A stretch of DNA of 64,000 bases from Rhina ancylostomus (Eukaryota), in the NCBI GenBank assembly GCA_030265395.1, contig JARFYF010000118.1, forward strand, positions 24,277,824 through 24,341,823, written 5' to 3'. Both the position numbers and the translations under genes were made by a program. The notes under the pieces are model-generated. The model was not told the origin of the DNA, did no database searches, and saw only the letters and a list, made by a program, of their open reading frames with translations. Below, piece after piece: positions 31,901 to 49,935 of this stretch (position 1 is the stretch's first letter; each line of letters opens with the position of its first letter).

Positions 31901-32930
31901 ACAGGCCATTTGGCCCAACTTGTCCACACTGACCAGTGGGTGCCCTTCCATGTTAATCCCATCTCCCAGCACTTGGACCATAGCCTTCTATGCCAAGTGC
32001 GCATCTGGAAATACTTCTTAAATGCTGTTGGCAACCCAGCTTCAACCTCTGTCTCAGGCTTAGTCAAGGATGTGTTGAGCATGCCCTTGAATCTTTTCCT
32101 CTGTCTACTTGGTAATCTCTTCCTGACAGAGCTCAGGAAAGAGTGCCTGTTTCATAAGTTTTGTCTCGGGCATGAGACCAATGTGACCTACCCAACAGAG
32201 CTGGCTGAGTGTAGATAAGGCCTCAGTTCTGGGAATGTTGGCCTGGGAGAGGACACTGACATTGGTCCACATATCCTTCCAGTGAATTTGGCGGATGTTG
32301 CAGAGACAGTGTTGGTGGTGTTTTTCCAGTGCTTTGAGATGCCAACTGAAGGTAATTCAGGTCTCTGAAATATGTAAGAGAGAAAGGATCACTGACAAGA
32401 ATCTTGTGCCGGCTTCAATGTCTTAATCTTAAAATACCTTTCTCCTCAATCAATGAAAGGCTATGCAAAAGAAGATGAACTTCTTTCTGTAATTACTGTG
32501 GTGAAGTTACCAGGCTCACTAAGTCCAATTATCAAGTGTGAAGAAGGATATGTTAAGACAGAATTCTCTGTGAAAGAAACTTGCAAGTGTGAAGAACATA
32601 AAACACAATAGTACAACTTCAGTTTTCCACCACAATACTTTGCCAAGACTGAAAATCGTGCAGTTTTTACATGAAATGCATTGATCTCCAAACCCGAATT
32701 GCCAATGTTCCTCTAAGGATCCAGTAACTGCTTTAGTATCTAAAGTATCAAATAGTGCTATCGTGGAAATGAAGCTGTCTGTTTGCTTTCAGGTGCGCAC
32801 TGCTGCTAGAAAGAGGTGGCATCGATGGCAAGACAACCACACTCTAAGAGTACGAGTTGCACGGGCTATGTCCATACCAACCTCACCTACAAGAATCAGC
32901 TTTCAGAGCATAAAACAAACAGGTGTCTGA
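7806..32930 (+). CDS. CRHR2: Corticotropin-releasing hormone receptor, CRHR2-like (class B1 GPCR), 5'-partial; join(7806..7921,10597..10714,11160..11313,12267..12327,14470..14542,19244..19329,25429..25564,25744..25785,32793..32930)
   Basis: Nine AG/GT-bounded exons with compatible phases give 924 nt (307 aa + TGA) with no internal stop: [24 protein letters not shown]...[21 protein letters not shown]...[22 protein letters not shown]...[12 protein letters not shown]...[17 protein letters not shown]...[27 protein letters not shown]2-type residues: NLITTF, YFVVTN, AIVMTY, YYENE, SFLQSFQ, NGEV. Family assignment is firm; 1:1 orthology to CRHR2 is not (see findings). Confidence 0.95.
9026..9150. 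mobile_element. Left arm of a Penelope-like palindromic element
   Basis: gatgctggaaatcc..tgctggagatact..ggcagcatctgtagagagaga; same family as 34762 and 54169. Confidence 0.6.
9155..10270 (-). mobile_element. CR1 LINE, 5'-truncated
   Basis: Reverse complement of the CR1 RT (gtaccacagggatcactgctggggcctca, VPQGSLLGP) through to the 3' tail. Confidence 0.8.
10597..10714 (+). CDS. CRHR2: CRHR2-like exon, ICL1/TM2: [39 protein letters not shown]
   Basis: aacag|g ... gag|gtaagc; 118 bp. The 39-residue length matches CRHR2 (the CRHR1 segment is one residue longer). H2.50b intact. Confidence 0.96.
11160..11313 (+). CDS. CRHR2: CRHR2-like exon, TM3/ICL2: [51 protein letters not shown]
   Basis: tttttcag| ... 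t|gtaagt; 154 bp; class B signature [13 protein letters not shown]. Confidence 0.97.
12267..12327 (+). CDS. CRHR2: CRHR2-like exon, TM4: (C)[19 protein letters not shown](E)
   Basis: ttcttccatag| ... ga|gtaagt; 61 bp, phase 1 to 2. Confidence 0.95.
14470..14542 (+). CDS. CRHR2: CRHR2-like exon, ECL2/TM5: [24 protein letters not shown]
   Basis: tttacag|a ... ctg|gtaagt; 73 bp; CWFG...DYIxQGP motif. Confidence 0.95.
17925..18165 (-). mobile_element. Deu-domain SINE (SacSINE1/AmnSINE-like), decayed
   Basis: Reverse strand ggatgagatattaaactg..tggatttaaaagacctcatgacac resembles the Deu core. Confidence 0.55.
19244..19329 (+). CDS. CRHR2: CRHR2-like exon, TM5/ICL3: [28 protein letters not shown](R)
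   Basis: tttttgaacag| ... ag|gtaaat; 86 bp. Confidence 0.97.
22035..22300 (+). mobile_element. Deu-domain SINE (SacSINE1/AmnSINE-like)
   Basis: ccagtgcagtactga..agatgagaaattaaactga..gaatgtaaaagatcccgtggc..gaagagcag. Related fragments at ~39470, ~52030, ~53930 and ~54890. Confidence 0.7.
24030..24155. mobile_element. Penelope-like element arm
   Basis: gacctgaaac..actctgtttctctttccacagatg..tcagattcc..atctgca; same family as 34762. Confidence 0.6.
25429..25564 (+). CDS. CRHR2: CRHR2-like exon, TM6/ECL3/TM7: [45 protein letters not shown]
   Basis: tcctacag|g ... cag|gtgggt; 136 bp; PxxG motif (PLLG). Confidence 0.97.
25744..25785 (+). CDS. CRHR2: CRHR2-like exon, TM7: [14 protein letters not shown]
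   Basis: ttttacag| ... gag|gtaagt; the 42-bp exon characteristic of class B1 GPCRs. Confidence 0.97.
26702..27285. mobile_element. Non-autonomous pogo/Tigger-like DNA transposon with an internal minisatellite
   Basis: Left end ta..agtaaaactctgataatc and right end gaattaatggagttttactg-ta are imperfect inverted repeats bounded by TA. Confidence 0.6.
27612..27950 (-). mobile_element. CR1 LINE 3' end
   Basis: Reverse complement reads agagtggttgatatctggaactcactgccagaagaggtggtg ([14 protein letters not shown]) plus tail. Confidence 0.8.
28165..28930 (+). mobile_element. CR1 LINE fragment
   Basis: [40 protein letters not shown] motifs. Confidence 0.75.
29576..29876 (-). mobile_element. Near full-length V-SINE
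   Basis: Reverse complement of the element at 30979-31273 over its whole length. Confidence 0.85.
30979..31273 (+). mobile_element. Near full-length V-SINE
   Basis: tRNA head with A-box-like tggtagtgtggcagttagc and B-box gggttcaattcc, V-domain gggtttcctctgggtgctccagtttcc, tail catgtgacaaataaagatatctt. Confidence 0.85.
31700..32420 (-). mobile_element. RTE LINE fragment interrupted by a CR1 3' tail (~31872-32060)
   Basis: Reverse strand resembles 340-660 (cccatggacctttgggaatctctagaccaaagtggcaaaggagcattc; RPKWQRSI). The inserted CR1 tail ends in ctatgactc repeats. Confidence 0.65.
32793..32930 (+). CDS. CRHR2: CRHR2-like last coding exon, helix 8/C-tail: [45 protein letters not shown]
   Basis: tttgctttcag| acceptor; [12 protein letters not shown] motif; TGA at 32928-32930. 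Confidence 0.97.
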
Positions 32931-33077
32931 CGCGGCAATACCGAGGACCCTTCTTTTTGAATTTTTCATTGTTTTCCTTCAACTCTGAAGTGATTTGTTT
33001 GTTTGTGGATTGTTGTGCACATTTAAAACACGTGATGGTGAATAAGAGAAACTAACAATCCACGTCTCACTGCAAGT

Positions 33078-33083
33078 AATAAA
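33078..33083 (+). terminator. Candidate proximal polyadenylation signal of the CRHR-like gene
   Basis: First AATAAA after the stop codon. Other AATAAA hexamers lie further downstream (e.g. 36785-36790, after AT-rich UTR-like sequence). No transcript evidence. Confidence 0.3.
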
Positions 33084-34761
33084 AGCTGGGGAGTCAGAGT
33101 GGAGCAGCCTGTAATTTTCCTTCTAGCATGTAGCTCAGAAATGGCCCAGGACAGCGATTGAGTCTGCATTAATAGGGTAGCCCACTTAACTTATTCCATG
33201 GTCCGGCTCTAAGAGAGCTTGTCACAATCTCAGGGCAAGAATGAAGTCCATTTCAAAGTTTTATTCTACCAGGTTTTATCTTGCATCACTGATCTCACGT
33301 GATGAAATCTGGTTCCCCACTGAAATATCACCTTGATTGGGCAACTGGGAATCTATAGTGAAGGGAGGAAATCTTAATTCCTGATAGCACAGAGAAGAAC
33401 GCTGAAGCTTGTTAATATTAATCCACTGAAGAAAAGCACTGAAAGAATGACTATCTTTTCCAAAGCCAAATGCTGTCTGCTGGACAGTACATACCAAGTG
33501 GAAAAAGGACATCACATCTGTCAAATGATATGAGACAGAGATCTGTTTGTCAAAGAATTTGTGTTAAAGACAGGAGAAACGGAAAATGGAAGAGTTAATC
33601 ATTTCCATGAACTAGAGGGAGCAATGCATGAACAGTATGAGCGGCAACATCTTGCTCAAACAATTTTACTGAAAGAAGACAATTTCTATGCTATTTCATT
33701 GGTGTTGTTTTGATTAATGAATTATTGCAGACCATGGCTGGTTAATGTTCAATTAACCACCTTGAGGTCATATTGGGAGTTGCTGTATTGATATTTCCTT
33801 CTGTTCAGAGACCCAGACTCTTGGAATACCTAACTGTAACCCTTTATTTAACGCTATAGTCAATACTGAAACAGAAATCGTTGACTATATGGAACCCATC
33901 CAGTGTCTGTGTAATTGGTGTTCAGACCTAGCCAGAATGATCAAACCCTGATTACCAGCAGCATGGAGCAACCACATAAAAGGGGATATGTGTTATTGGC
34001 AGCTAACTAGATACAAAAAGATACATGAATCACCTAGGTATAGAGGGTACCTGCTGTACAGCCATTCCCCAAACAAGGTGACTGTGACAGAGGCAGTTCA
34101 CGCCTTACGGAACATTTAACGTGAGATTTTTTTTTACATCTGAGGTTTAGTGTCACGCTCTTTTAATGAAGTAGACCCCATGCAGTTAAGCAGTGTTAAA
34201 AGTGGCTTGTTATATACAATGTTAACAATTGTAACAATATTTATACCAAAGCATACCATGATATTTAGGCAGCAGTCTCTAATATTTATATTTACATGTA
34301 CGTTCCTAAGTTTAAGATGGAGTGCACTAGGATCACAGCACATCAGGGAAAAACATGCTCCACTGCCATCCACACTTTACAAATCCAGTAATCCACATGG
34401 AAATCAGCAATTCCTATTGAAGTTAATTTAAGCAGCAAAGTGTGACTTTCAGACTGCAAGTGCTATCTTGCCGCATCCTGACAGCGTTCAGATTAGAACT
34501 CCAACTTTTCTCCTAACTCACACAGGATTTCAAGTTATGAAATCAGGTTCACTTAGCCTTCCCATGTTCCTCCAGCCTGAAGGCAAATTAATCTGAATTT
34601 AGTTGTTCTTCCTACTTTGAAATGTCGCTTCCTTTCAGGGTAGATTAGGGACATTGGCCTGGAAATTCATCAGCATCTTTAAACCCACACTGATGGGTAA
34701 TTGTATGGTGCACAAATGAAGATATGTTGATTCTGAGACCAAAGCCAATTTGTGGGGGAGG

Positions 34762-34950
34762 AATAAAACAGAAAGTGGTGGAAACACTCAGCAGGTCAGC
34801 CAGCATCTGTGGAAAGAGAAACAGAGTTAATGTTTCAGGTCAAAGATCCTTCATCTGTTTCCTTTACCATAGATGTTCCCAGAGCTGCTGAGTATTTCCA
34901 GCATGTTCTATTTTTGTATCAGCATTCCAGCATCTGCCATTGTTTGGCTT
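34762..34950. mobile_element. Penelope-like palindromic element
   Basis: Arms aaaacagaaagtggtggaaacactcagcagg..catctgtggaaagagaaacaga and tctgtttcctttaccatagatg..ctgctgagtatttccagcatgttctattttt are reverse complements. Confidence 0.7.
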
Positions 34951-37049
34951 TCAGTGGGTTAGAGTGGGTTGCAGTCCAGACCTGGGAAAGATCTGAAAAT
35001 GGGGAGATGCATGAGGAATGCACGGGGAATTAGGAGATCAAATGAAATGCATGAAGATTAAGAGCCTGGAGCAATCCAGAGATTATGTAATTGGTGCCGA
35101 GTGATTGCGAACTTTGTTGGGGTGGTTGGGGGCTCATGGGGGTGATAGGGGACTGGAGAGAGCAGATTAGCTTTTCAAACTAAGGAACCCATTTAGGCTG
35201 GGTTCCCAGCATTGGGCTTGTACCTGCCCTGAGAGGCCTCCTCCAAACTGCATTGCTGTAAAGGACTGAATTCTGAAAACTTCATTGTTTCAATGACATG
35301 CACACCTCAAACAATTTGATGTCACCCTCTGTGTAACCAATGGGGAAGAGCCAGACCCACAAGGTAATTTGTGGCCTGGCATGCACAGGCAAATTCCCAG
35401 TGTGGCACAATACAGTATAACCAATCACATTCCACTGTAGAAATAAGTGACTTTTAAATATATAGCACTGAAAATATGTCCAAATTTCTGGGCCACCATT
35501 CCAATATATATGACCATGGTGTACCACACCAGAGAGTGATTAATTGATCATCAATTAAGTGAGAAATAGTATCATTCTCCAGCACCAAGTCATAAAAGCA
35601 CAAAGGTATATCCCCTGAAAAGTTATTCGGTACCCCTGACTAAGTTATGAGATGGATAAAGGTTGTTTGTACCTTAGATCAGTTCCTCAGATCTTCATCC
35701 CGCCGCATGCAATTAACATTTTATGGATTGTATCTTAGCAAATTAATCTCCTGAAGGCAGTTCCTGTATCAATCCCTGATCCTCCAAGAAAATCAAATGC
35801 AATTTTGCAATGTTCACCTCCAACTCTCCCATCCCACTACCCCAAGCTGCCTCTCAAATCGTCTTCATACAAATCACCCATATTGTGTTTCAATCCTGGC
35901 CAAGGTACACAGGACTCATTGTGTCCCACAGAGCATCTCATCACTGCCATCTGTACCTATCCATATCACCTCCAGTTACATTCCCTGAGAAATCTTTATC
36001 CAGCTTCCTTTGAAAGGAGTTACTAACACAAATGCTTCTGACTGTGAGTCTGATTCAAAAAAGCTGCTACTTTGCGGAAAAGAAGGCCAGATTTCCTCGG
36101 AGCTTCTCCCAGCCTCCTATTCTGTCTTTGCCAGAGCCCATTTACACAGGAATGTGGACTTTTGATCCCACTTCAAGAGAAGTTAAGGCAAAAGAGTGAA
36201 AGCAGCTCCATGGAAATTCCCGGACAGTTTCTTTGAACCTTGCTTATTTTAAAACTGTATCCTGTGGTTCTATGTCGATAAAGTCAAGTTACTCAGTGCA
36301 GTTGTGTTTCTGAGAGATATGATTTGTACAAACCATTTGTTGTGTGATTTTTATTTTACCCTAATTTTATGAGATTGGGGAAGAAAGAAGGTTGGCAATC
36401 TTATGAAACAGATGTATATTTTTGGTTGTAATATATGTGCAAAATTTATATGTAAATCATATAAAAGTATAAAGTATTTGAAAATTCAGAATAGGACGAT
36501 TTGAATATTCTTTGCAAAACAAATGTGGAAATGTTTAAATTATACTGAGTTGTATTATGAATTTCTAACAGACAAGAAAGGAAATTTCATCCAGTGGGTT
36601 CATGCTTTATAGTAGGCTTTGAAAACAGTTTGATCATCACTTTTCTTTCCTAAGAATTTCAGTGTTTTGTTTTGCCAATTTGCTATACTTTACTGCACTT
36701 GCATCAGACAGAATGTAAAATAGTTTGCCCCAGATCAGTCATCAATTAGTGGATTCCCAATAGGGATTATTTCATTTAGGCATCAATAAAACATCAGGGA
36801 GTTAAATGGCACAACCATTAAAAATAGATGCATGTAATGCTCTGCATGATTAACCTTCACCTTTTGCTTCCAATGCAGATAGCACACCAAATATGAGCTG
36901 CATTTTCATTATATTTCAGCATGGTGTAGGAGCTAACCCTAGTATTTGTTTATGTCATGAAGCTGTTAAAGCTACTTAAAACCAGATTATGTTTAAAGAA
37001 GAAGTACACTGTGGCCAATGCCTCAGGAGCAGACAGGTGTTTTAAAGCT

Positions 37050-37205
37050 AAAAATAAAGTGCTGTAGATGCTGAAAATCCAAAATAAAGCAGAGAATACA
37101 GGAAGTACTCTACAGATCAGCCAGCTCCTGTGGAGGGAGAAACCAGTTTTCTTCTCTATGTAGATGCTGTACGACCTGGTGAATATTGTAAGTGTCTTTG
37201 TTTAA
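37050..37205. mobile_element. Penelope-like palindromic element, decayed
   Basis: gctgtagatgctgaaaatcc..ctgtggagggagaaac / ttctctatgtagatgctg..gacctggtgaatatt. Confidence 0.55.
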
Positions 37206-37559
37206 TAGCTGTGGTTAGTCTGATGGGCAGTCATGAAAGACACAGCCCAGCAAAGTACATGCTTTGGAGTCTTCCATTGCTGCTCTTGAGTACCTGATGC
37301 AGAAGATGGAGGGAAGGATGCATGTTTAATTTTCTTTTAAGGGCAGGAAACCCTTGAGAACTCCTCTCACAAGGAAATGGTGCGAGACTCTTACCTAACA
37401 TTTGTCTGCCACAGCACACCCTGACAGTCTACTATTGTAAACTTTAATCTCACACCTCATAGTTGAATGAGGTATTAATGATTCAAATACAATAGCCACA
37501 TCACACAGGTGTGTTGCAACCTACAACTGACATCCTTCATTCTTGGAGGACAGGGTAAC

Positions 37560-38290
37560 TGTGATTGGAGAAGACAGTGACCAATCAACAGGGACAGCTG
37601 CATCACCATGTTGTCCTTTTGCAAGAGGAAGGTGCTCACTATCATTGAAGCAGGGGTTACTGGGTCAGTGGCCAGTAACAAAGTGGATCCTCATACCCAA
37701 TCCTCTTACATCACCGTTTTTCCTGTCCCATCTAGATTTAGAAACTGCAGATGGTATAAGCAGGCATTTCCCTCCCCTCCATATAGCCCAATCCTTATGT
37801 GTTTCTTCATTTAAATACCCCAAAATTGGCCACACTATGGTGGAAAAACAAGAAGATAGTGAAGACAAAGAAGCCCCATCTTTTGGTTCCAGACTTGTAG
37901 TCACCACCTCAGATGTTGGATGTGTGCATAATTTAGTGGTTAGGTTAAAAGTGAAATCTAGACATGGTGAGGAATCATTTATGAGTGACCTGTAGCCATG
38001 GCAGAAGACAGATGGCACCAGAGGAAAAGGCTGAAGTTAAACGCAAAAGGCGAACTCTTTGATGTGTTCGGCTATGGAAGAAGGCTGTTGGTTCTGCACA
38101 ATGAAATTCCTGGGGCATTGGCAAGCCTAGCAGCAACCTTGCATGGAGTGTCAAAGAACATGGAAGAGACTTTTACACCTACCAACACATTCACTTTCAT
38201 GGCGAAATACAGAAGGTACAGTGAATTGATACAATGTGAGAGCATCATGACTGCTGCCAGCTTTATGGCCGTTCATCTGCATGTTGTGTA
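37560..38290 (+). mobile_element. Possible PIF/Harbinger Myb/SANT-protein remnant
   Basis: Fragments KVLTIIEAGVTGSVAS and YGRRLLVLHNEIPGALASLAATLHGVSKNMEET recall fish Harbinger ORF2; recognised from memory only. Confidence 0.35.
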
Positions 38291-38589
38291 GTGCATGGTC
38301 ACTGGGCACTGAGGGTGTGTGGAATCTCTGTGAGGTTTACAGAGTGAAATATTCTCTAATTCTCAGGATATTGTTGTTGCTGGCAAGGCCAGGACTTATT
38401 GCCAGTCCTTAATTGCCCAAGAACTAAGTGCCTTGTTAGGCCATTTCAGAGGGCAGTTTAGCACCAGCCTCATTGTTGTGGTCTCAAGTTGACAGGCTGG
38501 TCCCAGTGAGGGTGCCAATTTTCTTCCATATAGGGTATTAATACCGGTTGAATTTTTATAATGGTACAGTAGCTTCATGGTGAACTAAC

Positions 38590-39460
38590 TCCTGCATGGT
38601 AAGCTAGTCCAGAAGGTTAGGTCACTTGGGATCTTGGGTGAGCTGGTCAATTGGACACAAAATTGGTCTGAGGGTAGGAGATGGAGGTTTGTGGTGTAGT
38701 GTTGTTTTTCAGACTAGAGGCCGATGGCCATTGGTGTGCCACAGGGATCAGTGCTGGGTCCACCTTTGTTCATCCTCTATATTAATGATTTGGATGAGAA
38801 TGCAGGTGGCATGACTAATAAGTTTGTAGATCACACTAAAATTGGTGGTATAGTGGACAGTAAAAAAGGTTGTCTAGGATTACAATGGGACCTTGATCAA
38901 CTGGACCAATGGACCGAGGAATGGCAGATGGAATTTAATTTAGATAAATTTGAGGTGTTTCAGTATGGTAAGACAAACCAGGGCAGAACTTACACAGTAA
39001 ATGGTGGGGCCCTGGTGAGTGTTGTAGAACAGAGATGAAGGGGTGCAGTCACTTGAATGTGGGACACAGGTAGACAGGGTGGTGAAGAAGGTATAAAATC
39101 ATAAGGGGCATGAATAAGGTGAACAGCCAAAGTCTTTTCCCTAGGGTAGGGAGTCCAAAACCAGAGAGTTTATAGGTTTAAAATAAGATGGGAAAGATCT
39201 AAGAGGGACCTGAGGGGCAACTTTTTCACACAGAGGGTAGTGAGTATATGGAACAAGCTGCTAGAGAAAATGGGAGAGATAGGTGCAATTATATCATTTA
39301 ATAGGCATTTGGAAGGTAACATTGATTGGAAAGGTTTAGAGGGACATGGGCCAAACGCAGGCAGATGGGACTAACTCAGTTGGGCAACTTGGACTGCATG
39401 GATGAGTTGGGCTGAAAGGCCTGTTTCCGTGTTGGGTAACTCTATGACTCTATGACCCTA
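38590..39460 (+). mobile_element. CR1 LINE, RT to 3' end
   Basis: ORF 38724..39038 GVPQGSVLGPPLFILYINDLDE..KFVDHTKIGG..WQMEFNLDKFEV; tail ctctatgactctatgac. Confidence 0.92.
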
Positions 39461-39589
39461 TTCTGGGAGCACAGTCAATGGTGCCCTGCACTATGCAGAA
39501 GTCTGCTCTCCTTACAGAAGAAAGAATGAAAAGTCATCTCTCTTTGCAAAAAGGGTGCTGGTAACTTCCCTTGTGCAAGGGCAGGTGCC

Positions 39590-40480
39590 AAACTGCAAAA
39601 CACGGTAGATGACACAAAAATTAGTGTCTTTGCTGATAGTGAGAAGGGTAGTATTAGCTTACTGAATGATGTTAAGTTTTTGAGTTGGTAAGGCATTGGC
39701 AGATAGAACTTAATCCTGATAAGTGTGAGGTGATGCGTCTTGGGGTGGTGGGGGGAGGAGCTGCAAATAAGAATAGGAGAAAAAATGGTAGAATCCTAGG
39801 GAATATTGAGGAATAAAAGGACCTTGGTGTACCTTTGAATAAGATAGCAGCACAGGTAGAAAGGGTGGTGAAGAAGGCATAAGGGATATTTGCCTTCATT
39901 AGTCAGGGCACAGAATGGTGGGAGGTTTTGGTACAACTTTATAAATCATTGTTTTGGCCACAGCTGGAATATTGCGTGAGATTCTGGTTGCCACACTTGT
40001 AGGAAGGACGTGCATGCACCAGAAACAGTGCAGAGGACAATCACCAGGATGTTGCCTGGGCTGGAATGTTTCTTTTATAAGGAGAGACTGGATAGGCTGG
40101 ACTCGTTTTCCTTGGAGCAGAAGAGGCTGAGGGGGGATCCTGATAGAGGTATAGTAAATTATGAGAGGCATGGATAGGGAACATAGTAAGAAACTTATCC
40201 CCATAGCAGAAGTGTCTGTAAGCAGAGGTCACAGGTTTAAGGCGAGGAGTAAGTGGTTCAGAGGGGATCTGAGGGAGAATTTTTTTTCACCCAATTCACA
40301 CTGAGAGGGTGGTGGAGGCAGGTACTCTTAGAACATCTAACAAGCATTTGGATGAGCACCTGAATCACTAAGTCACAGTAGGCTACTGACCGAATTCTGA
40401 TAAATGGGGTTAGTATAGCCAGGACTTAATGGTTGGTATGGACATAATGGGCCAACAGACCTGTTTCTATGCTGTATGAG
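39590..40480 (+). mobile_element. CR1 LINE, RT to 3' end (second copy)
   Basis: VDDTKI..WQIELNPDKCEVMRLG..VQRTITRMLPGLE..RLDRL motifs and tail. Confidence 0.88.
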
Positions 40481-41374
40481 CCTCCACATTTAGACTAGGT
40501 GGTACTAAATACCTGAAAGATTCATGGCATTTAGACCTTGACAACCACTGGTAAAGAGGATATGCCTTGTTCTAAGGTTACATTTCTGGCAGATTTTTGT
40601 AAGGACATTCTTATGGAAAGACAGGAATGTCACACACAATATTTTTCACTGAGGTTCAGGGACCAGAATTGCTCTTTAATCATAGGGTGGATATGGCCTC
40701 AAGGTAGAAGTCATAATGCGCACTGCAACCTCTGCCCTGAGCTTGTCCTAGACCATATAACCTCTGCTCATTCTCTCAGTCATGTTTTTTTTTCCCAAAG
40801 GCTTTCTGTATTTATATAACTAGGAACAACTGATCTGTGCAGAACCCTTGAGTTCAGTGCAAAGTCCTTCAACACTGTTCCCTGCAGATTGCTCAAAAGC
40901 AAAAGAAACTAACCATCAGTTAACCTGTAAACAGTGGTTAATCTCTTAAAATCTCTTAATCTCTGTGCTTTAAGATTAAAACTCATCTTTATCCAGTCTG
41001 TCTGCAAAGCTGCAACCTCATCACTGAAGCTATTTGAGTAAATCTCTACTTGTATTTCTATAGGCTTGATGAGGTGTCTTGAGCATAAATCTGAGAACAG
41101 GGTAAAAAAAAACCTATTGAAGTTACTATTGAGAATCTTCTGCTGTATGGTTAATAAATCTGGCCTTGTGGTGAATTGGTCATCTGACATCTTGTCAAGT
41201 TGCAAACAGTAAACTTTAAGTGAACAAAGTTTAAGTAGAGAAAATTCTGGGAGTAGGCCATAGTCTGATAGTTGCAGCAAGAGCACCGAGCCAATGTGTT
41301 CTCTGTTGTAAAGAGCATACAAAGTGGAAGCAGGAATATTCCATGCAATTTTTCAAGCCTGCTCCATCATTTAC

Positions 41375-41780
41375 ACAAACATAAGAATTAAGAGCAGGCC
41401 ACCTGACCCCTTGAGGTTGCTCTGCAAGGTCACAACTGATCTGACTACAACTTCAACTCTTCATTTTCATCTACTCTGGTAATCTTTCACCCAATCAAAA
41501 ATCTATCTACCAATGCCTTAAAATATTTGAAGACTTAGATTCCCCTGCTCTTTAAGAGTCCTTAGAGTGCCTCAGAAAATTTTACCTTGTCTGTCTTGAA
41601 TGTGATCCCTTTTTTTCAAAGAGTGACCCCTAGGTCTAAATTCTCTCTCAAGAAGAAACATACTCTCTGCATTGCAGTTTTTCGAGACCCCTGTTTCAAG
41701 CAGGTCCCTACTCACTCTTCTAGGCTCCAGCAGAAACAAATCTAGCCTGTCCAACCTTTCTTTGTAACACAACCATCCAA
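41375..41780 (-). mobile_element. CR1 LINE 3' end
   Basis: ORF 41572..41772 CYKERLDRLDLFLLEPRRVSRDL..RPRGHSLK. Confidence 0.82.
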
Positions 41781-41799
41781 ATTCATTGCTGATTTTCTA

Positions 41800-42740
41800 C
41801 CTTGGCTTAGTTTTCTTGCCATATCCACATATGACTTGAATTTCTAGATATTAAAGGAATCATCTATCTGTTTTGAATAGCCTTCTAGGGTAGTGAATTC
41901 CAAAATTTCAACAACCTCTGCTTGAAGAAATTTCTCTTCATCTTAATCATAAATATCCTATCCATTTATTTCTGATAATGTAACACATCATTTGAAACTC
42001 CAGCCAAGTAAAACATCTTTCCTGCATTCAGCTTATTGAGCCCAGTAAGAATTTAGTAAGTTTCATTGAGAATATCTTGTTGTTCTGAACTCTCATCTTT
42101 TGTATGGCAAACCCACCATTCTGGTGAATCTTTATTCATGAACACTCATCCTCTTGTAATAAAGGCCAGAGTACCATTTGCCACATTCATTGCTTGCTGA
42201 ACCTGCATGTTTTTAGTGACTTGTGTACAAACTCATCTAGGTAGTTTTGAATAACTGCATTTCCCAATCTGTTACCTTAAGTTTATTTTGTTCTGCTGTG
42301 TGCACCAAGTGGATATTCTCGTTTGTTTCACCTGCCATGTTCTTGCCCATTCACTGATCTTTTCCAAAAACCCTTGAGGCTTCTTCACTCATTGTCCCAC
42401 CTAATTTTGTATCATCAGCAAACCTGTTGATATGTGACACATGGTCCCTTCACCCATATCATTGATAAAGGATATGAATAGCTGGGCACAAGCACAATCC
42501 CAGCAGTACCCACAAGTCACAGCCTCCCAACCCGAGAAGGACCCATTTATTCCCATGCTTTGCTTTCTATCTGTTAACCAAGTTTCAATCCATGCCAGTC
42601 TATTAACTTTTGTTCCTTGTGCTCCAACATTGAGGGATCTCAACAAAAGCATTCTGAAAAGACAACTAGGCATCCACTGGTTCTATTTGACTATCCTAAA
42701 ATAAATCCAGCAGATTAATCAGCACAATTTCCCTTTCTAT
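41800..42740 (-). mobile_element. CR1 LINE fragment
   Basis: ORF 42401..42673 LAWIETWLTDRKQSMGINGSFSGWEAVT..QLFISFINDM. Confidence 0.8.
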
Positions 42741-43189
42741 TACCCTACTTCAGTTTTGGGGAAAGTGACCTACAGTGAGGATTAAACTTTCATTTTTAAT
42801 CTAATGAGTTTAATCCCCTTTAAGCAACATTGTATAAGGGAAAGAATTTGCAGAACAGTGTGTTGAAAATGTCAACTTGGGTTGGGAATTCTTGTTGTTC
42901 TCAAAATAAATTCCTGGAAATATTATGGCACAGATGGGGACTATTTAACCCATTCCATTCATACAAGCTGACATCAATTACTAATCTCTCTGCCAGTAGA
43001 AATGTATTCATTCTTCCTAGCAATTTTTAAATTTCAAAAGAAAGGACCATGGCTCAGCAAATTGCTGCTTCAAGCTCAAATTTTCCTGTCCTAGCAATTT
43101 CCTTTAAGTCGTCTTTGTGGCCTGTCTTTGTATTTCCTTATGACATAGCAAGAGGCAATTCAGCCAGAGTCTCTGCCACCTCTCAGAGC

Positions 43190-43400
43190 AATCAAATTAT
43201 CTCGCTGTCTTGCTTATTCTGCTACCAGCCTGATAATTAGGGGTAACTGACAGTAGCCACTTAACCGAAGAGCCAGCACATCTTTGGCATGTGGGAGAAA
43301 TTTGGAGCACCCAAGAAAAAAGGGAAACTCCACAATAGCACCAACAGTCAGTACTGAAGCTGGGTTGCTGTGAGATGGCTGCACTACCTGCAGCACCTCT
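43190..43400 (-). mobile_element. V-SINE, decayed
   Basis: catctttggcatgtgggagaaatttggagcaccc is the reverse complement of the V-domain. Confidence 0.65.
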
Positions 43401-43640
43401 GTGCTTTACATGCAATAGCATGAAGCTGATGCAATCCAGGGTTGTAGTGTCTGTGACCTCTGTTCCTCCGTGTGGCAAGTAACCCCTGAGGAGGACAAAA
43501 CATTCAGATGCTGCATTTTATGTAATGCAAACTTGGTTATTTTTAAATTTTAATTGCATCAAATTATATTTACACAAAGAAAATTGAGGTCTTAAAGATA
43601 AGGCTATTGATGTACTTACAATATTCATATTTTTTAACAG

Positions 43641-43923
43641 GTTACTATCCAGCTGCTGGGCAGTACCTGCCTCCAGGTCACTTTATCCCCCCTGGCCACT
43701 ACCCACCCCCGCCTGGGCACGATCCCCCTCATAGTGGACAAACGGCAACTGTTATAGTTCCTCCAGGTGCAGCAACAACAGTGACTGTACTGCAGGGGGA
43801 GATGTTTCAAGCTGCACCAGTGCAGATTGTGTGCCCTCATTGTCAGCAGGCTATCACAACCAAGATCACCTACGAGCTTGGCTTATTGAATACTTTATTC
43901 TGTCTCTTCTGCTGTTTTATGGG
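43641..43923 (+). CDS. CDIP1: CDIP1 (cell death-inducing p53 target 1, LITAF family) penultimate coding exon
   Basis: tttttaacag|gt ... gg|gtaagt; (G)[93 protein letters not shown](G). Matches the CDIP1-specific [12 protein letters not shown] and [12 protein letters not shown] motifs. Confidence 0.95.
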
Positions 43924-45777
43924 GTAAGTGACTTGTATTTGGGGGTTTTCAGGTCTCATTTTTAAGAATTCTTTTTCTTACAGCTGCAATCGCTTTTTTT
44001 GACCTCTCTTAATCTTATGGATTTTTTAAAACACATCTGCATACTTTTCATATTTTCTTCCATGTTGGCACTCTTGTTCTTTTGGAATGATATTAACTAT
44101 TCTGCAGCTCTCATTCTTTTTTGGTGTTCTGTTATCTTGCCTAATTTCCATATCTGTCTTGACTTGCCCAGATCATGTTCTGATATCTTCCTGACTACCC
44201 TGCTCTTCTACAAGTTATTTTCCCCTTTCTACTTGAATAGTAAACCTCAAGTGCTCACCCATATGGATAGATAAGCTATTTTATTTACTCTTTACAAAAA
44301 TAACTCTACCCATGTAGGAATAAGATAATCCTGCATAATTTATGAAATTAATAGAACGGAATTCCTCTGTTCCACCCAGAGTCAGTAGTAAAGTTCCTGG
44401 ATCAATTTTGTTATTTCTTGTCTCCTAGATTTGCAAAGTTTCTTCCCATAACTAGTATAATTCCAATAATGGAATAATTTCTTTGAAAGAACTAACACAT
44501 TAAATGATGGTCTCCTGTGCTGTAAGATACTAGCATTAATCTTTCACTGAATTGACTTTTGCTGATGCATACAAAGTTAGTCAATCTTCACAGCATGTTT
44601 TACCTCACTATTTTGCCACTTAACCACACAGTATTCCATTCTTGTGAAAGGAAAAAAAAGTTTGTACACTTTCTGTCCTAGTGTTGCCAAATTTCAGTTC
44701 ATATTGTTCTATTTCTGTGAAAGAATTCCTTCTAGCTTTTTCCCTACACAGTATTCCAATGCATTTAATTTTTCCATGTCCATACAGTCCATTTCATGTT
44801 AAATCTTGCCTTGTGTACTCCCCTTTTTGTGTATGTTGTGTCCACCTCTTTTTTTTTGCTCTGTATCCTACTGAATAATTTTGAAGGTAACTTAATTGTT
44901 TTCTTTCAATACTGAGTTTTGAGTTTGAATTATTTTCTCAGCAAATGTTGTTGCTCATTCTTGCACTTCCACTCCTTTTTAACTAATTACTTGAGGGTTT
45001 GTAACAAAATGTAGAAATACTGATTATTAAGTTATTTTTATAAATTACTTTTTTCATTTATTCTGATTCCAGGGCCAACTTTCTAATATTATAAAGTCCT
45101 TTATTAATAAAGTGGTTTCTCTCAGGATCTCATCAAAATGTTTTGATAGAAATTATGTCAGGATGTGACCTAGTGTTATTTAAACTGGATCTTTGTTTTA
45201 GCATGTTGTAGTATTTAAGTTTTTGAAAAATAAGTGAAATTCAGCAAAACAGTTTTGGACTTGAGGGAAAATAATCTTGCATTATCATAAACTTTTTTTT
45301 CTTACTGCTGAGCACACCTACAGACCCTCAAATTCAACTGCATTAATTGACAGTGATTTCATGATCTGAACATGAAGCAAAGTGTATAATATTCTGATTA
45401 TGCCAGATTCTGGAACAGGTTTCATAAGGCATACTTTGTAATTTGGAATGATTGTCTTGGTTCAGTAATGTCTTTATTTCTTGGCAGGGATTGGGGAAGG
45501 ATAAAGCACATTCAATAACTATTCTGATTTGTGGTTGTGACTTTTCCTGGTGAATAAATCAAAGTGATAATCTGATGATTTGACAAGAGTGTAATTGTTT
45601 TGCTCAGGCACTGAAGTCTTAAATTCTAAGGGTGTGAGCATAATTGATGCCATTGATGAAGACCCTTCACTTTTCCAATACATTTTTTATATACTACTAT
45701 TTGTGTAATGTACAATAATTGTCATTGATGTAAAGCTGTAGTAAACTTCAATTTCTTTTTCTTTTGTTTTGATCCAG

Positions 45778-45889
45778 GTGTGATCTGGGTTGCTGCTTAA
45801 TCCCATGCTTGATAGATGACCTGAAGGATGTGATGCATACTTGTCCAAACTGTAAAGCTTACATATATACATACAAGCGTGTGTGTTAA
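45778..45889 (+). CDS. CDIP1: CDIP1 last coding exon: (G)[36 protein letters not shown]
   Basis: Long polypyrimidine tract then gatccag|g; second LITAF CXXC (HTCPNC); TAA at 45887-45889; phase fits the upstream exon. Confidence 0.96.
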
Positions 45890-48390
45890 CACCAACCCTG
45901 GTTCTGTCCAAACCTTAAAAGGATAAACTTAATGTTAACTTTTAGTTTCTATTTACACGTGATGCAGCATTGTCCTGTGCTGTCCAACAAACTGTGAATG
46001 CCTTACCTGCAGAATATATGATCAAGATGAAGAATTTAGTAATGTATTGATATTGTATCAGCAGTCAATTTTCATCCCCAACTTGAAAACAAAACACAAT
46101 TTCATTGCACTTCAAGTTGTGAAGTTTCCAGTAAAGCAAAACCTATGGCTAGCACCTTTTTAAGATGATAGTCAGTTTAGAATCTTGAGCTAGTTGTATA
46201 TTGATGTCGATTATTGTGTTAAATGGTGTTTGAGAATTAAAAGTAAATAACTAGTTTATGGTATCTTTCAACAGTCTGCCTTTTGTCCCAAAATATTGCC
46301 CACTGCTGCAATATTTTTGTTTATTCAATATGTACAGTTTAATATAAAACTATTAATGTGCTCTATAGAAAATACAGGAGTTAGAGTGCACACTTTAAAC
46401 CCCAGGGAAAAATAGTTTTGTCGTCTGGCACATGTTGCTGCTTAATGGGAGCACGTGCATGGATGTCTTGTAATATGGTGTGCATTCTTGCCATTTGATT
46501 ACTTGCAGTTGGTGTGTTTTTGGTTCAAAAATCCATCCTGATGCAGATGTATAAAGACTGAATTTCTGAACAATTGTTAGTTGCTGGGAAAGATAAAAGG
46601 TTAAAATGAAGGCCAATTTAAGAAAAGCATTGTTTATTTTGAAGAGTGTTTTTAAAGAGCCAAAATGTGAATTTCACTCATAGCATTTTATTGTTGCCAT
46701 TCTAATTTAGTTTAAAAATATTAAAGGTTCTGAGCCATGACAAATGTGTTATTGTGATTATAGTGCACTCATGTCAGTCCAAATCATTTTAATGGAACTT
46801 GAACAGAGGATATTTTTTTAAAAAAAATAACACCACCACCACCTGTAAGCTTTAGGTCTAAACATGTAGCTTAGATTTTGTGGATCCAAAGAAAGTTTTT
46901 TCCAGATTTGAGGAATATTGTCTGTTAAGGGTGACTATCAGGATCTCCAGAAATGTTCTTTATAGTAGTGTTTTGAAATATTGTACAGTGCAGAAATCTC
47001 AGATATACTCAGAATATAAATGTAGTAAAATACCAACATGCAGCTTGCAAGTATTGCCTTTGCTAAGACTCTGGTGCATATGTAAACTTGCACTTTGCTT
47101 TAGCATTTCTACTGTACACCTTGCATCATGAACTTGCAAAGAATTATTACAAATGCTTGACTGTTTTAAAACTAGGTTACTGGAAATACAAATGTGATAG
47201 ATGCATTTATTTTTTGGAGTGCACAGAGAGTATGCATGTGGCTGACCTTTTTCTACTTGATATGCTGTGGATAAATGCATACAACCTAACCACCTTTTGG
47301 GATAAAGCAAACTGGTTGATGAGAAGCTACAATTGTTGCTGGTTGGGAAACATTATTTCAGTACTTCTATTACTAATATTTGAACATTTTGTTCATGAGC
47401 TTTTCTGATACCACCATGCAATCATGGTCAATGTCAACATATTGACCAAACTTGCCTAGATTTAAGTTCAAAAATATCTTCTGTCATTTTATTGGTGAAT
47501 CATTTGAAAGATATCATCAGGTTATTTGCACACAGATCACATTTTTATGACACTTTGAATTTGCATTATGTAGTGCACACAGAAAGTATCTTGCAAATTG
47601 GAGACTTGGATTTGAAGACTGAAACAATTCCCATTTTAACAATTACAGCCAGTTCTATGTTTGGAGTCTTAGATTTTAATGCTGTTCATCAATAGACCAT
47701 GCATATTTATACCAAAATGTAATAGTCCTGATTTTGCAGGAGTAGCAGATCTTTACAACTATATTGGAGACATGGGTAAAAGACTAATATCTGGTGCAGT
47801 ATTTTAAGTGCTGATCTGACAATTTAAGTCAATTTCACAAGTAGGTTCCCTGTGTAATTGTAAAGTATTGAATTTTGAAAATGGACTTATTTTTAAAACC
47901 ACATACTTGTTTAAAAACATTGCTTGCATACTCACCAGAAGTTCTTTTTAAGGGCTTCTGTGTCAGAAAAGTTTGAAAATTCCATTTTAAATCAGTCTTG
48001 ACTGATTTGATTTTTCCATATATTTACATACATCCAGCAATATAAAGCCACCACTCCAAAGCATAGGGTAGATGATAGAAATGAAGGATGAACTTTCTGC
48101 ACTTTCTGTAAATACCAGTCTTTAGTTTGCACACCTGTGAATAATTTACTTGCCTTCATTGCTATTTGTTTTGAAATAAGTTGTACTTGTCTGTCCATTG
48201 TTTAAATCTAACGTGTGTTGATATTTTGTTAATGTGCATTCTGTCTCTTAAATTGTTTTTTTTTGTTAGATGCCTTGCAATGTCCTAAGTAGTTTTCTGT
48301 AACATTTTGTGTATGAATTAAATCATATTTCCATGTATTCTCATGTACAAAGTATATACATCTTGGAAGCTAATAAATGCTAAAAACACT
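45890..48390 (+). other. CDIP1: Putative CDIP1 3'UTR (~2.5 kb)
   Basis: AT/GT-rich tract with no repeat that I recognise, running from the stop codon to AATAAA at 48372-48377. Confidence 0.55.
48372..48377 (+). terminator. Probable CDIP1 polyadenylation signal
   Basis: AATAAA preceded by TGTA elements (~48310-48350) and followed by a T/GT-rich element (ctttgttttg). Confidence 0.55.
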
Positions 48391-48989
48391 ACTTTGTTTT
48401 GATCTTAAGTTTAACTCCTTATTCAAAAATACTGGAATTACAAATTCCAAACAAGTTAGTTGTTTTCCTACAATTTGCATATGGCTTCTGGATCTAAAGT
48501 GCTAGAATTTTAATCTAGGAAGATGATCAGATCATTAATTTGAAGATTCAAAGGTCATTGAATAGGTTCCATTCTTACAAATGTCCGTTAGTTGATTTTT
48601 TTTCCTCCATAAATTGGAAAATATGCAAATATCACTATGGAAATTATCTGTATTGAGTGGCATCAGAAGTGCAGAAGATTTTTTTAAAAGAACAATTACT
48701 AAATGTGGAAAACTTGTTTTGCTGTTTGTAGAAATTAACATGTATTTACATCAGACTTTAGAATTTTAATATTATGGGAACTTGTTTGTATTAAATTGGC
48801 CACTTGTAACCATGGGACAGTTTGTACAGGTTGAACTAAGGAACAGAAATTGAGGGAATCGCATTACCAGTATGTACTATAGACCCCAAAGCAGTCAGGG
48901 AGATGAAACAAATATATAGGTAAATTTGTAAGTGCAAAAAAAAAATCTTTAAATTAGGAATGATAGGTGAATCAAGTGTATAAAATGAG

Positions 48990-49935
48990 AGTTTGTTAAA
49001 ACTCATTCGGAGGAAACATTAATTTGTACATAGCATGTTGAACAAAAGGAGTCAAGCTTGGTTTTGGAGAATGAACTTGGGCAAGTGGGAAAGGTGGCTG
49101 TGGGAGAGTGCGCTGAAGCAACAATTGTAATTTCATTAACTTGGCAATTTTAATGCAAAGGAACAAAGAACATCTTTTACCTGAGAGCATTTTGGGTGCA
49201 AGAAATTAAAGGCAAATTTGAATTTGCCTGGAAAACTCTGTAGAGTTTTGGTCTTAAGGAGGATTTTGCTTATGGAACCAATTCGGAGAACCTTCACCAG
49301 GTTGAAGCCCAGGATGATAAGGTTAAGGACATAAGACTTTTGGAGTTCTTGATGGGTCTTCAAGATAAATGCTAAGATTATTTTCCCTTCCTCACTCTTT
49401 CCCCCACCTTCTGAAGGAATCTATAAACTAGAGGATATTGGTTATCCCTTAATCTAATACAATTTAAGATGGAAATGCAGAATTTCTTCTGAATGTTTGC
49501 TTTGTTTGGGATTCTCTGCCCAAGACCTTTTGAAGGGAGAATCATTGAATATAAAGATTACAGTTCAAAAATCTGGCTCAGTCCAATGTTTGAGGAACAG
49601 GAAAGTTAAGACAAGATTGAATCAACTTAATGATGCATTCATACTTAATGTTTATTTCCAACATTCAATTCTTAAGTCATCTGGCCANNNNNNNNNNNNN
49701 NNNNNNNNNNNNNNNNNNNNNNNNNNNNNNNNNNNNNNNNNNNNNNNNNNNNNNNNNNNNNNNNNNNNNNNNNNNNNNNNNNNNNNNTGCATAGTAGGGG
49801 AATTCAGGGTTATGGAGAAAAGGCAGGTAGGTGGAGCTGAGTCCACGGCCAGATCAGCCATGATCTTATTGAATGGCGGAGCAGGCTGGATGGGCCAGAT
49901 GGCCTACTCCTGCTCCTATTTCTTATGTTCTTATT
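48990..49935 (+). mobile_element. CR1 LINE 3' fragments spanning a gap
   Basis: RRTFTRLKPGM-like motif; young tail gggccagatggcctactcctgctcctatttcttatgttcttat. Confidence 0.7.

Follow-up and report, generated by a model that had tools for sequence, protein, structure and literature searches.

Exons in the window

The window analysed here is a 64,000-base stretch of Rhina ancylostomus DNA (G000:C118:24277824-24341823; coordinates without a contig prefix are window positions). It contains the 3' end of the receptor gene CRHR2 and, further along the same strand, the last two coding exons of CDIP1, and the initial annotation suggested that the receptor might be nested within a CDIP1 intron. We put at about 0.9 the probability that the apparent nesting is an assembly misjoin and not a real feature, and that CDIP1 is an ordinary intact gene whose halves have been separated by the assembly. 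The features of the window are listed below, where X1, X2 and X11 are public runs from which contigs were aligned.

32793..32930, plus strand: last coding exon of CRHR2, including the stop codon; 98% to Pristis CRHR2
32931..40945, plus strand: CRHR2 3' untranslated region (UTR) and downstream flank, with repeats like long interspersed elements (LINEs) from about 38570; native, judging by the contigs seen
40946..40966, no strand: breakpoint, a 21-base word apparently common to both loci and the putative site of the chimeric join
40967..43640, plus strand: distal CDIP1 intron 2 (coding numbering), likely misplaced; covered by X2 contigs and by X1 contigs without substitutions
43641..43923, plus strand: CDIP1 coding exon 3, 283 bases, phase 1 to phase 2; an X11 contig aligns over the 283 letters
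45778..45889, plus strand: last coding exon of CDIP1, to the stop; 36 of 36 residues as in Pristis
45890..49296, plus strand: CDIP1 3' UTR, extending at least to here in a relative; an X11 contig is colinear over 45777-49296
49297..49687, no strand: end of the gap-free stretch, probably still the CDIP1 locus; depth in all four runs
49688..49787: scaffold gap of 100 N, likely the right edge of the misplaced piece

The receptor gene upstream of the CDIP1 exons is CRHR2, with its stop codon at 32928-32930 and exons that extend over C118:24192840-24310753 (118 kb). About 72 kb of this is a single intron (C118:24193227-24265746) between the second and third matched coding exons. Six X11 contigs with depth 3.1-6.6 lie at 33000-36357, which is a weak hint of a CRHR2 3' UTR of more than 3 kb in that relative, given that X11 is RNA-like by guess and may hold DNA.

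CDIP1 exon 3 starts in phase 1, as initially annotated, with a T-rich AG acceptor in front and a GT donor at its end. It matches a ray CDIP1 at 93% over all 94 residues and that of Pristis at 97%, and the best protein matches are to ray CDIP1 (90-93%). Exons 3 and 4 have no stops or frameshifts and their splice sites are intact. The right edge of the piece that carries them lies at either 49296 or 49687: the X3 and X11 pieces listed end at 49296, and the last bin (49153-49680) keeps depth in all four runs.

The search for a 5' half agrees with the initial annotation, which had found neither a gap nor a CpG island nor a 5' exon between exon 3 and the CRHR stop. There are no Ns between 31576 and 49687, and no CpG-rich 500-base window (GC above 0.5, CpG observed/expected above 0.55) in the 264 kb of C118 around the window. 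All 7 CDIP1 query proteins match exons 3 and 4 only in these 264 kb (E<1e-3), and no CDIP1 5' exon lies in the 100 kb that flank the window on each side. A hidden or divergent 5' exon within the window was also considered, and rejected: in permissive tblastn with 7 relatives the strong matches among those listed are exons 3 and 4, and the others are short and attributable to chance. The statement that the sequence from about 37000 is mostly transposon remnants holds for 38570-40797 and 41355-43582, but not for 37456-38012 and 40798-41354, which are at single-copy depth.

The 5' half of CDIP1

The initial annotation would have looked upstream of the window for the start of CDIP1, but the 100 kb there has no CDIP1 5' exon, and the missing part is elsewhere, on the 99.7-Mb contig C112. 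When the entire genome is searched with a full-length ray CDIP1, residues 1-33 and 28-89 match the minus strand of C112, at 32116639 and 32115551 respectively, and the exons are as follows.

C112:32116639-32116555, minus strand: CDIP1 coding exon 1, 85 coding bases
C112:32115538-32115380, minus strand: CDIP1 coding exon 2, 159 bases, ending in phase 1 at a GT donor

With this phase exon 2 fits the acceptor at 43641, which is also phase 1. A gap of 9,362 N opens 734 bases past exon 2, where exons 3 and 4 would belong, and the window piece (40946-49687) has 8,742 bases, 620 fewer than the gap. Overhangs on contigs from relatives at the junction (290 letters in X2, 326 in X3) would cover about half of this shortfall. 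In the genome coding exon 1 matches once, on C112, and exon 3 once, in the window; 43300-49680 has a single match over its full length, and the remaining 39 scored matches cover only a 250-base repeat. We take it from these single matches that the assembly carries one CDIP1, in two places. Over the four coding exons 7 aligned residues differ from Pristis CDIP1 (0, 4, 3 and 0 per exon), and with its proline-rich N-terminus and LITAF domain, CDIP1 proteins as best matches and linkage to LITAF, the gene is a CDIP1 orthologue.

About 4 kb upstream of exons 1 and 2 is a CpG-rich patch (G000:C112:32120751-32121250) that is a candidate for the CDIP1 promoter and non-coding first exon; a GC palindrome in it resembles what we take to be an NRF1 site.

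A contig from X11, which is from another organism and is RNA by guess, has 6,563 letters and skips CDIP1 intron 3 exactly, and its 307 letters ahead of exon 3 have no match in 33000-49680 (the CRHR2 coding exons are outside that stretch). Exons 1 and 2 on C112 sum to 250 bases, which by length would leave about 58 of the 307 for a non-coding first exon. The same contig indicates a CDIP1 3' UTR of about 5.9 kb in that organism, with 2,419 letters past 49296. If the misjoin is real, these last 2,419 letters should enter the sequence on the far side of that gap on C112.

The LITAF orthologue is also on the minus strand of C112 (G000:C112:32015947-32021786), about 94 kb beyond CDIP1 exon 2. A strong CpG island about 65 kb upstream of its coding exons (G000:C112:32086751-32087500) may be the LITAF promoter or that of another gene. 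Weak LITAF-domain-like matches with internal stops (C74:104694895, C112:18648471, C22699:563 and C1:143078338; E 0.35-5) are possibly further paralogues or remnants. A Pfam scan for neighbouring genes in 150 of 290 candidate frames gave 2 weak matches below the cut-off and none of use; as it missed the LITAF exons too, it is uninformative on gene content.

The break at 40946-40966

Contigs of four public runs (X1, X2, X3 and X11) were aligned to 33000-49680, and then under stricter settings to 40560-41290 with X9 replacing X11. These, like all 16 runs listed, are pre-assembled contigs and not raw reads. None of the 10 records aligned to 40560-41290 bridges 40946-40966.

X1 is the run closest to the window and shows no differences from it. 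It has two contigs over 40560-41290: one ends at 40952 and the other begins at 40946 after 18 letters foreign to the window. X2 and X9 carry nearly the same letters before their own CDIP1-side starts, at 40946 and 40949 respectively, the overhang in X2 being 290 letters, and X3 has an overhang of 326 letters at 40949 in the first alignment, in a record that was not retained at the stricter setting. On the CRHR2 side contigs of X3 and X9 match through 40966 and then diverge. The contigs thus leave the assembly at one point whichever side they come from (X1, X2, X9 and X3 at 40946-40949, X3 and X9 at 40966), and with CDIP1-side starts at 40946 and CRHR2-side exits at 40966 the 21 bases in between appear to be common to both loci. 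In the assembly this word occurs once. A hole in coverage proves nothing, and the positive evidence on the junction comes from the overhang on the CDIP1-side contig of X1.

X2 contigs tile 40946-44779 into exon 3, and five X1 contigs in the piece (about 7.8 kb) have no substitutions, one of them being unbroken over 3,345 letters. Contigs from relatives are colinear over 33000-38619 and 40342-40966, and none listed crosses the repeat block at 38689-40113. A join inside the LINE block at 38.6-40.3 kb had been the first suspicion, and was set aside since the contigs put the break at 40946-40966, although none listed spans the block.

The gap-free stretch that bears the junction has 18,112 bases and is the longest among 68 in the 264 kb (N50 5.5 kb), and the assembly is rich in gaps, with 68 in the 264 kb and 43 in the 200 kb examined.

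Candidates for the true continuations were also followed. The X3 overhang on the CRHR2 side has no match in the window and one on C54 (2 mismatches), which we rejected as the continuation because its context lacks the shared word and resembles a repeat tail, as we presume that context to be. A search for an unplaced contig overlapping the junction gave one match in the assembly, the window itself. Matches of 12-31 letters between the sequences flanking the C112 gap and the window are in scattered places.

Gene placement in other rays and sharks

In all six annotated rays that are in both of our lists CRHR2 and CDIP1 are on sequences of different length, length being used here as a stand-in for chromosome identity and not as a map position. 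The lengths of the sequences carrying CRHR2 and CDIP1 respectively are:

Pristis: 102.49 and 103.00 Mb
Narcine: 376.2 and 103.2 Mb
Rhinoraja: 93.7 and 38.6 Mb
Hypanus: 214.8 and 169.7 Mb
Mobula hypostoma: 256.4 and 152.4 Mb
M. birostris: 254.3 and 158.6 Mb

By the same measure LITAF and CDIP1 are on same-length sequences in 3 of 3 named species (Pristis, Heptranchias and Cetorhinus). Our literature search found nothing relevant on CDIP1 with CRHR, on nested CDIP1 or on CRHR2 synteny in cartilaginous fish.

Interpretation and alternatives

Misassembly was the last of four options in the initial annotation and is the one that the data support, given the break in the contigs and the C112 exons beside a gap. 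It is likely that the 8.7-kb piece with exons 3 and 4 was glued behind CRHR2 at 40946-40966. The positions of the exons, the agreement of their phases, the gap, the presence of one copy only and the departure of contigs into other letters at the break are observations. With a gap of 9,362 N for 8,742 bases and phases that match, the piece has a home that fits. We suggest that the assembler reached a spot behind CRHR2 that was thinly covered or bounded by repeats, crossed a 21-base word that is also in CDIP1 intron 2, and continued along the CDIP1 path. The chimeric contig would then have been scaffolded with CRHR2 on C118, and its true place on C112 left as Ns. In the animal exon 2 would be spliced to exon 3 in cis, over an intron of about 3.7 kb or slightly more.

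Several points weigh against this. The CRHR2-side contig of X1 stops at 40952 without an overhang, so that its own continuation is unseen; for the final 14 bases of the shared word on this side the evidence comes from the relatives X3 and X9. X1 may be from the assembled individual or from another, and within the piece it is about a quarter deeper than on the upstream contigs (5.8-7.4 on five contigs against 3.86-6.4 on three). A direct DNA link from the piece to the edges of the C112 gap was looked for and not found: the CDIP1-side overhang motif has no match in the assembly, and the longest exact end overlaps of the window with the flanks of the gap are 10 and 8 letters, in unrelated places. 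The 307 upstream letters of the X11 contig were counted and not read, so that the agreement with C112 is one of length only. Contigs drop rare variants and some records were filtered, so that a minority junction could escape. Finally exon 3 has three changes, P to L (43667), Y to D (43721) and T to I (43826), where all 13 of the shark and ray proteins compared have the same residue.

With regard to these residues, 138 of 139 homologues (139 of 140 having passed the score filter) retain the T that immediately precedes the first CxxC, while D is found in none and L in 11 at their positions, which are in a low-complexity part that aligns poorly. The I codon is inside an X1 contig free of differences, and so is not confined to the assembly. 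Calculated from the depth bins, X1 is at about half depth over 43583-43756, and L and D may therefore be heterozygous or thinly covered.

The three changes keep alive the possibility that the CDIP1 3' half was recently copied behind CRHR2 and is decaying, with the working copy hidden in the C112 gap. We consider this improbable. The slightly raised X1 depth would suit it, and collapsed duplicates commonly leave a gap at one of the loci. However no contig bridges the junction, and the X1 contig passes 40946 into other letters instead of ending as at a merge point. There are only 2 X1 records over 40560-41290, and the five X1 contigs of the piece are without substitution at near single-copy depth. 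Despite the three changes at conserved sites the exons have no stop or frameshift and keep their splice sites. The assembly has one copy and X1 no second contig, though the content of the gap is unreadable. The truncated copy of the initial annotation is thus unlikely too.

A private or heterozygous rearrangement in the assembled animal, in which repair at the 21-base word moved or fused the CDIP1 3' half to the CRHR2 flank, seems to us equally improbable. The junction is within a gap-free stretch and has microhomology, and contigs can hide a minority path; sites of clipped alignment are often heterozygous loci and can mimic misjoins, according to PMC10582259. Against it, the run nearest to the window has the native CDIP1 path and no other at 40946, the gap on C112 is near the size of the piece, and the assembly is gap-rich. 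A further elaboration, in which a microhomology-mediated move cut CDIP1, the full protein comes only from trans-splicing or CRHR2 read-through, and the three unusual substitutions reflect changed constraint, we regard as very improbable.

There remains the arrangement that the window itself suggests, with CRHR2 nested in CDIP1 intron 2 on the same strand, or exons 3 and 4 reached by read-through, and the C112 exons misplaced. The shared strand, the gap-free adjacency and the open phase-1 acceptor are in its favour, but we give it hardly any weight. CRHR2 by itself takes up 118 kb of C118, no CDIP1 5' exon lies in the 100 kb searched upstream of the window, coding exon 1 was found only on C112, and the last CRHR2 exon has its stop before the junction, at which contigs of relatives break. 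Exons 1 and 2 are near LITAF, which stays with CDIP1 in the three named species, whereas CRHR2 does so in none of the six rays. The proposal of read-through from CRHR gains no support from the relative's spliced contig, in which the 307 letters before exon 3 match nothing in 33000-49680, a stretch without the CRHR2 coding exons. A CDIP1 split between two chromosomes in this lineage, with its mRNA made by trans-splicing, would suit two single-copy open halves with matching phases on different contigs, but is no more credible, there being no promoter-like patch near the 3' half, no support for the junction in X1 and a gap of the right size after exon 2.

A CDIP1 that was truly nested or trans-spliced would be a striking case, but is very improbable. 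The misjoin is of value only as a correction: annotation of this assembly would yield two CDIP1 models, both broken, and would make CRHR2 and CDIP1 false neighbours. A gap-free stretch is no proof of adjacency here, and for other headless exons of this assembly the first check should therefore be for a far-off partner next to a gap.

Comparison with known systems

The window resembles same-strand nested genes and read-through (conjoined) genes in that a headless exon comes after a full gene end in the same orientation. It differs in that no host 5' exon was found upstream on that contig and the adjacency is unsupported in the runs and annotated relatives examined.

The closer likeness is to the chimeric contigs of fragmented short-read assemblies: the break falls at a short shared word within a contig that has no gaps, read-derived contigs leave there, and there is an orphan gap at the true locus. 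PMC10582259 gives near-100% clipped alignments as the mark of misjoins, and our case differs from that class in resting on contigs and not on raw reads.

CDIP1 itself (C16orf5) is a LITAF-domain protein (Pfam PF10601), and the Rhina gene is typical in that exon 2 on C112 encodes PQPGF, an ALG-2-binding-like motif that PMC7865452 names. It departs from its relatives in the three unusual residues of exon 3, and in this assembly alone is the gene divided between two contigs.

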